From Shigella phage ESh25, in sequence record ON528735: a stretch of 64,000 bases of DNA; one strand, written 5' to 3'. The notes beneath the pieces were generated by a model, which saw only the letters and a program-made list of their open reading frames with translations, made no database searches and was not told where the DNA came from. The position numbers and the translations under genes were made by a program. Below, piece after piece: positions 31,637 through 32,453 of the stretch (position 1 is its first letter; every line of letters begins with the position of its first letter).

Positions 31637-31666
31637 CTAAAACCCCGTGTAAACAACTTTGTGAAA
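31637..31666 (-). promoter_or_regulatory. T4-type early promoter (copy 1 of duplicated cassette)
   Basis: GTTTAC at 31666-31661, TACTAT at 31642-31637; about 35 nt upstream identical to the copy at 31956-32010. Confidence 0.55.
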
Positions 31667-31924
31667 TTATTTTAAATCTTCTAATCGTTTCTTCATCTTA
31701 GAACCATTTTTAGCGATTTCTCCTGCGTCAGAGCATAATGCTAAAAGTGCTTTAACTTTAGTTTGGTCTCCTTTAAAAGACGAAGGATCGACTGCAGCAG
31801 CAAGTTCTTTAATACGAGAGAAAAGACGCTCAGCTTCAGCTAAAGCCATTCCAAGCTTTACTTCCATACCATGAGAAGATTCAGTGATAATAGTTTCTGT
31901 AGCAAACTCTTTATAAGTTTTCAT
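31667..31924 (-). CDS. putative head internal protein with capsid-targeting-like N-terminus (MKTYKEFATE)
   Basis: N-terminus closely resembles the T4 IP capsid-targeting sequence MKTYQEFIAE; 85 aa; sits between duplicated promoter cassettes. Confidence 0.55.
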   Translation of the reverse strand: MKTYKEFATETIITESSHGMEVKLGMALAEAERLFSRIKELAAAVDPSSFKGDQTKVKALLALCSDAGEIAKNGSKMKKRLEDLK

Positions 31925-31955
31925 TTTTATTTTCCTAATTAATTTTGATGAGGTA

Positions 31956-31985
31956 ATAGTATCACTACCTCATCAGTGTGTAAAC
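31956..31985 (-). promoter_or_regulatory. T4-type early promoter (copy 2 of duplicated cassette)
   Basis: GTTTAC at 31985-31980, TACTAT at 31961-31956; -10 lies in the loop of a 9-bp inverted repeat GATGAGGTA/TACCTCATC. Confidence 0.55.
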
Positions 31986-31997
31986 AACTTTGTGAAA

Positions 31998-32453
31998 TTA
32001 TTTTAAATCGTCTGCCCAATCAAGCTTAAGAGGTTCTTTGTATTCACGATCTAATACGACCGGAATTTGTACATCACCGCTAAATGATAAGGGTCCAACA
32101 TTATAAGACAATGTTATATGCGGTGTGTAATCATCAAAATCGTGTGTAGCACCTAGTGCCCGCGCATACATGTGTCGACAGCGCAGATATTCAGAATCTA
32201 GCACAAGTACAAGAGTCGATCCATCTTGTGTTTTCCACACTTCTAAATGTCCAGAAGAAGCTACTTCAAAACTTCCACTCGATGGAACATATGGAACATT
32301 TACTCTTGAATAACATATAGTCGAATGAATTTTTTCTCTAGGAACTGGATTAGGAACACGTAAAGAGCGCTGGAGTTCTTCCAGCGCGTCAAGTGTTAAT
32401 TCTGAAAACTTAGCTGCTACATAAAGACCCGTTGAAAAGTCTTTAAATTCCAT
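31998..32453 (-). CDS. 57B: gp57B; 2H-phosphoesterase-fold protein, anti-CBASS nuclease Acb1 homolog
   Basis: 151 aa with two H-x-T/S motifs (HSTI, HITL) typical of the 2H phosphoesterase fold; position upstream of 57A as in T4. Confidence 0.8.

Follow-up and report, generated by a model that had tools for sequence, protein, structure and literature searches.

Shigella phage ESh25 (sequence record ON528735) carries an open reading frame (ORF) of 85 amino acids (aa) on the minus strand, between gene 57B and a trna.4-like gene and flanked by two similar promoter sequences. It starts MKTYKEFATETIITESSHG and as a whole reads MKTYKEFATETIITESSHGMEVKL...RLEDLK. What is this gene, and does the repetition around it mark it as one that moves? 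The whole stretch of 64,000 nucleotides (nt) that was analysed is called the window, and positions refer to it. A sequence-only reading had described a second internal-protein-like gene that sat exactly between two copies of a duplicated promoter cassette, as expected after insertion or exchange by recombination. Judged by sequence comparison, the ORF is ip5, an already-named T-even internal protein (IP) gene at IP locus 1 (57B/Acb1-trna.4). With a probability of roughly 0.88, ip5 is an interchangeable IP gene in an array of self-contained cassettes that are exchanged by recombination, and its product is packaged and injected.

The ORF was found as described (31924-31667, minus strand). Megablast of positions 31300-32500 returned 628 phage records, and the records for RB51, AR1, wV7, PST, ime09, PP01 and others name its product 'Ip5', 'IpV' or 'internal head protein'. 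The RB51 entry (YP_002854099) carries the note 'similar to Ip5 from T6, T2, RB15 and RB70', and GenBank Z35082 ('Bacteriophage RB15 DNA for Ip5, Ip9, Ip7, Ip8'; 1994 deposit, Repoila et al.; Ip5 CAA84462) has ip5 immediately behind the stop codon of 57B. The full length of the protein (residues 1-85 of 85) matched PHROG 3499 ('internal head protein') at E = 3.7e-50, and it was 95% identical to the Ip5 of T2 and RB70 and 100% identical to that of PP01 and teqskov; its internal-protein-like character was borne out. The coding DNA was identical to RB51 ip5. By tblastn the protein was found in 496 records, 268 of them at the same locus with at least 80% aa identity; the remaining 228 had a paralogue of Ip5, 51% identical, at the second IP locus, flanked by lysozyme e and denV. 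A word-indexed search of 5.8 billion proteins gave five Ip5 clusters only. The leader variant in the window, MKTYKEFATETIITE, is that of RB51, RB70 and PP01; the commoner variant is MKTFKEFATKTTITE. 'Second' was a misnomer for this gene, which occupies the classical ipI position and has the window's only canonical MKT(Y/F)xEF leader.

Read on the minus strand, a 32-nt sequence matched the window exactly twice, once on each side of ip5 (coordinates in Table 1); no occurrence was expected, even with 3 mismatches (100 dinucleotide-preserving shuffles). The direct repeats of the sequence-only reading were therefore real, but its downstream copy had been placed at 31658-31690, about 11 nt off, and its end point of 32010 for the upstream copy was one nucleotide too far (correctly 32009). 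Similarity between the copies spans 69 nt in all (86% identity), and their starts lie 331 nt apart. On the coding strand each copy reads GAT TTA AAA TAA, TTTCACAAAGTT, GTTTACA (the -35), a 17-nt spacer and TACTAT with an upstream TG. The first four codons are the D-L-K-stop of the preceding gene (57B stop, 32000-31998; ip5 stop, 31669-31667), so the repeat begins 9 nt inside 57B and 9 nt inside ip5, and the gene does not lie exactly between the copies. Both stop codons sit in the AT-rich part of the repeat.

Each copy holds TTTACA-17-TACTAT with the extended -10 TG, and the duplication of a promoter cassette was upheld. The ip5 promoter, with its 17-nt spacer and TG-extended -10, matched 9/12 positions in a consensus scan and fits TTTACW-N17-TAYWAT, the consensus of the PeSL promoters of PST/T4 (PMC4122927); transcription of ip5 would start near A31949. 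In the upstream cassette a stop codon within AT-rich DNA is followed in turn by the -35, a hairpin that spans the -10, the Shine-Dalgarno AGGA and the ATG; the same type, with 1-4 mismatches, follows 57B in 11 compared Tequatrovirus loci. The downstream cassette has the same layout and differs in its spacer and 5' untranslated region (UTR; ..CTATCAACTACTGAGGAGAATAAAATG). An explanation of the differing 5' UTRs by RegB (GGAG) was dropped; GGAG leaders also precede RB15 Ip9 and Ozark Ip6. Of the window's 13 early-promoter-like sites, several carry the upstream motif 'tttcacaaa..GTTTACA' or the leader 'CTATCAACTACTGAGGA'. Among these sites the pair flanking ip5 was the closest (67/94 positions overall, 35/39 upstream), followed by a pair with 61/94 overall and 29/39 upstream; the median was 38/94.

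Gene content at the locus was compared across 14 annotated phage loci and 36 IMG/VR loci anchored on 57B. Across about 45 loci, 0-5 leader-bearing ORFs that are otherwise unrelated lie between 57B and trna.4, and the content varies over that range among phages with flanks 94-98% identical. No gene is present in FT, L016, L017, bov9_1 and slur02. Ip5 stands alone in the window, RB51 and Lutter, IpI in T4 and phiD1, Ip7 in L042 and Ip6 in L043. Combinations are Ip5+Ip6 (PST, GiZh, G3F10, L012), Ip5+IpI (RB6), IpI+Ip6 (Ozark) and Ip5-Ip9-Ip7-Ip8 (RB15), with up to five ORFs in L027. Every Tequatrovirus junction was a 58-85-nt cassette of common design; some ip ORFs of more distant relatives lack a promoter of their own and overlap the stop codon of 57B (ATGA). 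The locus clearly varies across T4-like genomes.

A synthetic excision junction was composed of the 57B end, one 32-mer, the downstream spacer and trna.4, as would follow from a crossover within the 32-nt copies. Its full length (420/420 nt) aligned as a single piece to bov9_1, bov10K1 and slur02/04/11/13, at 97-98% identity, and alignment confirmed the junction. In FT (locus L009) a complete upstream-type cassette is joined to trna.4 at the shared ribosome-binding site (RBS) and start, AATAAAATGAAA. Both deletion junctions predicted from the window's repeats, one in the 32-nt AT-rich/-35 repeat and one at the RBS/start, thus exist as natural genomes. They fall in the zones, the AT-rich region and the -10-to-ATG stretch, to which Arbiol et al. 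(2010; PMC2839356) mapped the crossovers of PeSL mini-circles.

Compared with RB51, the window had no substitutions over 280 nt (31927-31648), where about 9 were expected at the flanking divergence of about 3-4% (57A plus 57B, 26/683 sites; trna.4, 5/186). On either side the first mismatches are met at 31977/31976 and 31647/31646; in both cassettes these are the two positions that follow the -35. Between these mismatches 328 nt are identical, if a slip in an A-run (31929/31928) is disregarded, which is almost exactly one period of the repeat (331 nt). An island of identity bounded by the cassettes is suggestive of exchange, not decisive. Homogenisation of the two repeat copies within a genome was considered and rejected: the C/T after the -35 agreed in only ~6/10 phages, by eye. 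Taken with the 0-5 ORFs of the relatives and the two excision junctions, the RB51 tract backs the proposal of insertion or exchange between cassettes.

Exchange might instead be targeted, and the hairpin over the -10 bears on this. In the upstream copy it has a perfect 10-base-pair (bp) stem (13 bp counting G-U pairs) and a 10-nt loop that contains the -10; its RNA fold was -21.2 kcal/mol (z = -4.2), and 0/200 shuffles were equally stable. The inverted repeat recurs across 78 distinct junction cassettes with varied arms, among them TGATGAGGTA/TACCTCATCA, GATAGGGTA/TACCCTATC, TTGATAGAACTA/TAGTTCTATCAA, AGGTCTATAG/CTATAGACCT, GATGGGATAA/TTATCCCATC, AGGGCTAT/ATAGCCCT and AGGGTTAT/ATAACCCT. Covariation was scored in an ungapped alignment of the cassettes with the -10 17 nt after the -35 (55 sequences, 54 distinct), which had not been selected for structure. 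With the helix on an axis fixed relative to the -35, 67.9% of cells were paired, against 31-58% for slid partners, and 10/12 pairs changed on both sides. The covariation score was 0.26, against 0.196 ± 0.011 in shuffles, and was reached by 0/500, a significance that the shuffle control overstates because the cassette sequences are related; the slid controls are the fairer comparison, and they still favour the structure. Perfect stems of at least 8 bp occurred in 30% of cassettes against 1.1% of shuffled ones, and at 2/13 of the window's early promoters. An alternative register (5' arm 6 nt upstream, ATAGGGT..ACCCTAT) was 51% paired against 50% in shuffles, which reached its score in 29/500 cases; it was treated as a lineage-specific variant and not as a second conserved structure.

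That a phage structure-specific nuclease or DNA-binding protein recognises this hairpin, or a cruciform, and directs exchange in a site-specific-like way is unlikely. The fixed axis, the covarying arms and the rarity of long stems at the other early promoters speak for it; Arbiol et al. (2010) raised structure-targeted exchange for PeSLs, and one mini-circle crossover was mapped to the loop (PMC2839356). However, the natural junctions lie outside the hairpin, those of bov9_1 and slur02 in the AT-rich/-35 repeat and that of FT at the RBS/ATG. The downstream hairpin is weak in the window. T4 recombination requires less than 50 bp of homology (PMC2839356). G-U pairs are frequent (34/54 sequences at pair 21-30), which fits a role of RNA in read-through transcripts better than a DNA cruciform. 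The predicted start near 31949 lies inside the 3' arm, so the hairpin would form only in DNA or in RNA read through from upstream. It is a possibility that the hairpin actively signals cassette mobility or RNA processing and is not a passive patch of homology.

Three further observations concern these structures. The two commonest spacer types (cassettes of loci L001-L012) look like block permutations of each other (GTTTACT-TTTTAG-ATAGGGT-AGTGA and GTTTACA-TAGGGT-TTTAGT-TGTGA); in each the pairing with the 3' arm ACCCTAT is retained, the loops being 10 and 18 nt long. At about 27869-27830 (minus strand), upstream of the ORF 27813-27478, the -10 of an early promoter (GTTTACA-17-TATTAT) is spanned by a perfect inverted repeat of 10 bp (ATAGGCTCAT..ATGAGCCTAT). 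This promoter starts at the stop of the preceding 87-aa ORF, which makes it a cassette of PeSL type that lies outside the IP loci; another promoter is located at ~27477. A permissive E-value search of Rfam found no known RNA in 31000-32600.

Packaging of the product is predicted from its leader, which matches the MKT(Y/F)xEF type (MKTYKEF.., aromatic at position 4, Phe at 7). M1, K2, T3 and F7 are invariant across Ip5, the e-locus paralogue, IpI, Ip6, Ip9, Ip7 and Ip8, the rest of these proteins being unrelated. Leader residues 4 and 7 drive capsid targeting, and the gp21 prohead protease cuts after L/I-X-E (PMC9026906). A8-T9-E10 of Ip5 misfits that rule and I13-T14-E15 before S16 fits it, so gp21 is predicted to cleave after I13-T14-E15; the 19-residue leader of T4 IpI likewise ends I-T-E (..STITE/A, the slash marking the cut). 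In locus L024 (3639-3881) and cluster P0004 the Ip5 cargo (SSHGMEVKL...) stands behind a 10-residue leader, M(K/Q)TYQTF(M/I)TE, and the L024 leader MKTYQTFMTE joins it at E/SSHG. Carriage behind two leaders with the same join fixes the module boundary, and with the shorter leader in L024 it indicates that leader and cargo behave as separate modules. L024 belongs to a more distant T4-like phage, in which the Ip5-cargo ORF lies 8 nt after the previous ip ORF and lacks its own promoter.

It is quite improbable that Ip5 is an unpackaged early cytoplasmic protein whose leader reflects only the common ancestry of the cassette's 5' end. Such a protein would suit a gene whose directly upstream promoter is early only, with no late-promoter motif TATAAATA between 57B and ip5, and whose position 8 is Ala, not Ile or Leu, so that the 10-residue site misfits L/I-X-E; the literature searched contained no virion data on Ip5. 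Against it, the targeting residues Y4 and F7 and the I-T-E site at residues 13-15 are present, and the cargo is joined to two different leaders exactly at E/SSHG. T4 ipI is preceded by the same cassette, with 2 of 88 nt mismatched, and the ipI product is packaged (PMC9026906). The late-promoter motif inside gene 1 could supply late transcripts.

The predicted mature protein was modelled with AlphaFold2 as two long antiparallel helices (17-44 and 54-84; mean predicted local distance difference test score 72, from a shallow 6-sequence alignment). Foldseek against the PDB gave a best E of 0.46, only to generic coiled-coil or designed helical hairpins, and these matches were rejected as uninformative, the two-helix fold being too simple to discriminate. 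Pfam DUF7890 was rejected as sub-threshold (13 bits against a cut-off of 26). NCBIfam gave no match, a PDB sequence search nothing below E = 0.56, and an exhaustive hidden Markov model search of 1.84 billion representatives Ip5 and two 94-aa paralogue clusters, no others; none of these matches bore on function. In a direct comparison with IpI, the two proteins were unrelated (24% identity in a forced alignment).

The preferred explanation is a shuffling of self-contained IP cassettes. Each unit consists of an early promoter overlapping the previous stop, the -10 hairpin, a Shine-Dalgarno sequence and an ORF with its leader in the first 10-19 codons. Each cassette therefore starts and ends with the same ~70 bp, and the leader codons add a further ~20-30 bp of shared sequence. 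Where two such stretches recombine by homology, either within one array or between the genomes of co-infecting phages, whole IP genes can be deleted, inserted or replaced, and the expression of the neighbours is left undisturbed. The early promoter of ip5 itself would drive synthesis of Ip5, and late transcripts read through from the TATAAATA motif in gene 1, via 57A and 57B, would probably add to it. The leader would carry Ip5 into the prohead core, gp21 would cut it after I13-T14-E15, and the 70-aa basic helical hairpin would enter the host with the DNA on injection. T4 Ip1, Ip2 and Ip3 each block a different GmrSD type IV enzyme (PMC12373910; PMC9391042), and as of 2025 only these three have identified targets (PMC12373910). 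By analogy with them, Ip5 most likely neutralises a specific host first-line defence. A tentative suggestion, at somewhat less than an even chance, is that it is injected and inhibits a defence as yet unmatched to any IP, such as one more GmrSD subtype or a different type IV restriction subtype.

Several observations weigh against this explanation. The repeat consists in part of the general consensus of early promoters, 'tttcacaaa(g/a)..GTTTACA' being present at ~187, 13436 and 28206 as well, and so sequence identity of the copies is by itself no proof of duplication. The RB51 island is one of several low-divergence patches (trna.3 differs at 1/381 sites); such patches are common in mosaic T-even genomes, which is why it counts as suggestive only. 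The hairpin of the downstream copy is degraded in the window, where relatives carry ATAGGGT..ACCCTAT, and its RNA fold was not significant (z = -1.6). A consensus scan found no intrinsic-terminator-like site and no U-run follows the stem, a result that cannot exclude attenuation; the terminator half of the PeSL model is unsupported for these copies. With no relationship to IpI, PDB match or remote homologue, the anti-restriction role of Ip5 is proposed by analogy, and a literature search for virion proteomics naming Ip5 found none. That the copies are alike only as strong T4 early promoters under common constraint on an UP-like AT-rich element, the -35 and the extended -10, with ip5 an old resident and no gene movement, is very improbable and already disfavoured: the motif recurs with the transcribed leader CTATCAACTAC(T/G)GAGGA at other promoters (187, 11997, 13436, 28206) and other IP genes also end in an A/T-rich K-stop, as expected if an UP-like element constrains the 3' codons, but the ip5-flanking pair is closer than any other promoter pair, gene number varies between near-identical flanks, natural genomes have junctions equal to crossovers in the repeat, and the RB51 mismatches stop and restart at the cassettes.

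Table 1. Positions of the ip5 locus, its parts and its neighbours in the window.
Feature	Position	Strand	Remarks
gene 2	34919-34095	minus	followed by gene 3
gene 1, deoxynucleoside monophosphate kinase	33447-32683	minus	
late-promoter motif TATAAATA	33046-33039		inside gene 1
57A	32683-32453	minus	
57B = Acb1, anti-CBASS phosphodiesterase	31998-32453	minus	left anchor of IP locus
upstream promoter cassette (57B to ip5)	31925-32013	minus	69-nt repeat copy 31945-32013
upstream exact 32-nt repeat copy, GATTTAAAATAATTTCACAAAGTTGTTTACAC	31978-32009	minus	holds last 3 codons and stop of 57B
ip5 early (sigma-70 type) promoter	31956-31984	minus	-35 TTTACA 31984-31979; -10 TACTAT 31961-31956
inverted repeat over -10, upstream copy	31946-31975	minus	arms TGATGAGGTA (31975-31966) and TACCTCATCA (31955-31946)
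ip5, 85-aa internal head protein precursor	31924-31667	minus	
capsid-targeting leader MKTYKEFATETIITE	31880-31924	minus	codons 1-15
predicted mature Ip5*	31670-31879	minus	70 aa, isoelectric point ~9.2
downstream promoter cassette (ip5 to trna.4)	31597-31682	minus	69-nt repeat copy 31614-31682
downstream exact 32-nt repeat copy	31647-31678	minus	holds last 3 codons and stop of ip5
trna.4 early promoter	31625-31653	minus	-35 TTTACA 31653-31648; -10 TACTAT 31630-31625
trna.4-like 61-aa predicted membrane protein	31596-31411	minus	right anchor of IP locus; PHROG 1692

The gene order around ip5 is that of a T4-like (Tequatrovirus) genome, with all genes on the minus strand. The 57B product matched Pfam PF23474 (Acb1) with 202.7 bits (E = 2.6e-60), so the IP array directly adjoins another counter-defence gene; the name 57B is used in the RB51 and T4 annotations, and most phage records label the gene 'RNA ligase' or 'hypothetical'. 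The 61-aa membrane ORF is T4 trna.4 and is followed by trna.3, trna.2 and a tRNA cluster with a GIY-YIG endonuclease. That ORF (216 aa, 30397-29747, minus strand; homing endonuclease type) has an equivalent annotated 'homing endonuclease' in RB51, and Lutter has an unrelated HNH endonuclease there; the position is another variable site, ~1.3 kb downstream of the IP locus.

The second IP locus of the window is empty: e (24504-24010) and denV (23950-23534) are separated by a 59-nt promoter cassette, whose early promoter has a 5-bp hairpin over the -10. No leader-bearing ORF follows denV (23436-22150), where T4 has ipII and ipIII. With the second locus empty, Ip5 appears to be the sole canonical internal protein gene at either locus. 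A 157-aa ORF (28848-28375, minus strand) has a leader-like start (MKSYAQFLNE/A) and belongs to PHROG 2280 (function unknown); it had no Pfam or NCBIfam match, and it is probably the 'first' internal-protein-like gene that the word 'second' implied. It has a T4 late-promoter motif TATAAATA at 28892-28885 and is flanked by two direct copies of a 36-nt terminator hairpin (28335-28370 and 28890-28925; 35/36 positions identical). Over the interval 28335-28925, T6 and JE01 matched ~20% in two short pieces and RB55 the first 61 nt, and none of them has an annotated gene there. The interval looks like a second presence/absence cassette, bounded by terminators instead of promoters.

The interpretation of the sequence-only reading was supported in all three parts, all of them previously published; what it described exists and was read correctly, but the gene already has a name, its locus is a textbook one, and the case is nothing new in kind. 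The IP loci are a textbook case of T4-like phages shuffling counter-defence genes. Since the cassettes carry their own promoter and a common packaging leader, any small protein could be loaded into the capsid and delivered before gene expression. The window is a very clean instance: its one cassette has exact 32-nt flanks, both excision products occur in nature, and the RB51 identity island is as long as one period of the repeat. Several hundred sequenced phages carry Ip5, among them phages that infect O157 and candidate therapeutic phages, so the target of Ip5 would matter for predicting host range. Because Ip5 is the sole canonical IP gene in a 64-kb window that spans both published IP loci, a delta-ip5 derivative would be a clean single-gene tool for finding that target.

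Among known systems the closest is T-even Ip5 itself (RB15, T2, T6, RB70, RB51, PST): the same gene, directly after 57B and between the same flanking cassettes, with the difference that in the window it is the sole IP gene at its locus and the second IP locus is empty. T4 ipI, whose product IPI* is an injected inhibitor of the GmrS/GmrD type IV enzyme, occupies the same locus behind a nearly identical upstream cassette. Both leaders are of the long type ending I-T-E, and mature Ip5 and IPI* are both small and basic (70 and 76 aa; isoelectric points 9.2 and 9.0). The Ip5 cargo is nevertheless unrelated to IpI; it was modelled as an all-helical hairpin, and no IPI* structure was among its Foldseek PDB matches.

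Repoila et al. (1994), as reported in PMC2839356 and PMC4122927, described two polymorphic IP loci with a conserved leader and PeSL-like flanking homology; the model of cassette shuffling and mini-circles is that of Arbiol et al. (2010; PMC2839356) and Comeau et al. (2014; PMC4122927). The PeSL cassettes of those studies (RB49/phi1, PST/T4 and nt-1/KVP40) have the same order of parts as the window cassettes, and a stem-loop overlapping the -10 is one of the two commonest PeSL subclasses (PMC2839356). Both are tied to insertions, deletions and replacements, and in both the crossovers map to the AT-rich region or to the interval from the -10 to the ATG. The T-even IP-locus elements are regarded as analogues, not homologues, of the RB49 PeSLs, with weaker AT-rich stems and no polyG/polyC (PMC2839356). 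Unlike PeSLs, the window cassettes have no terminator-like signal, and their homology reaches into coding sequence on both sides (3' codons and leader codons). As a small accessory gene with its own promoter between conserved genes, ip5 also resembles the lambdoid morons. Morons, which have their own promoter and terminator, lack conserved linker flanks and are thought to move by illegitimate recombination (PMC2839356); at ip5, by contrast, the flanking cassettes provide the homology.

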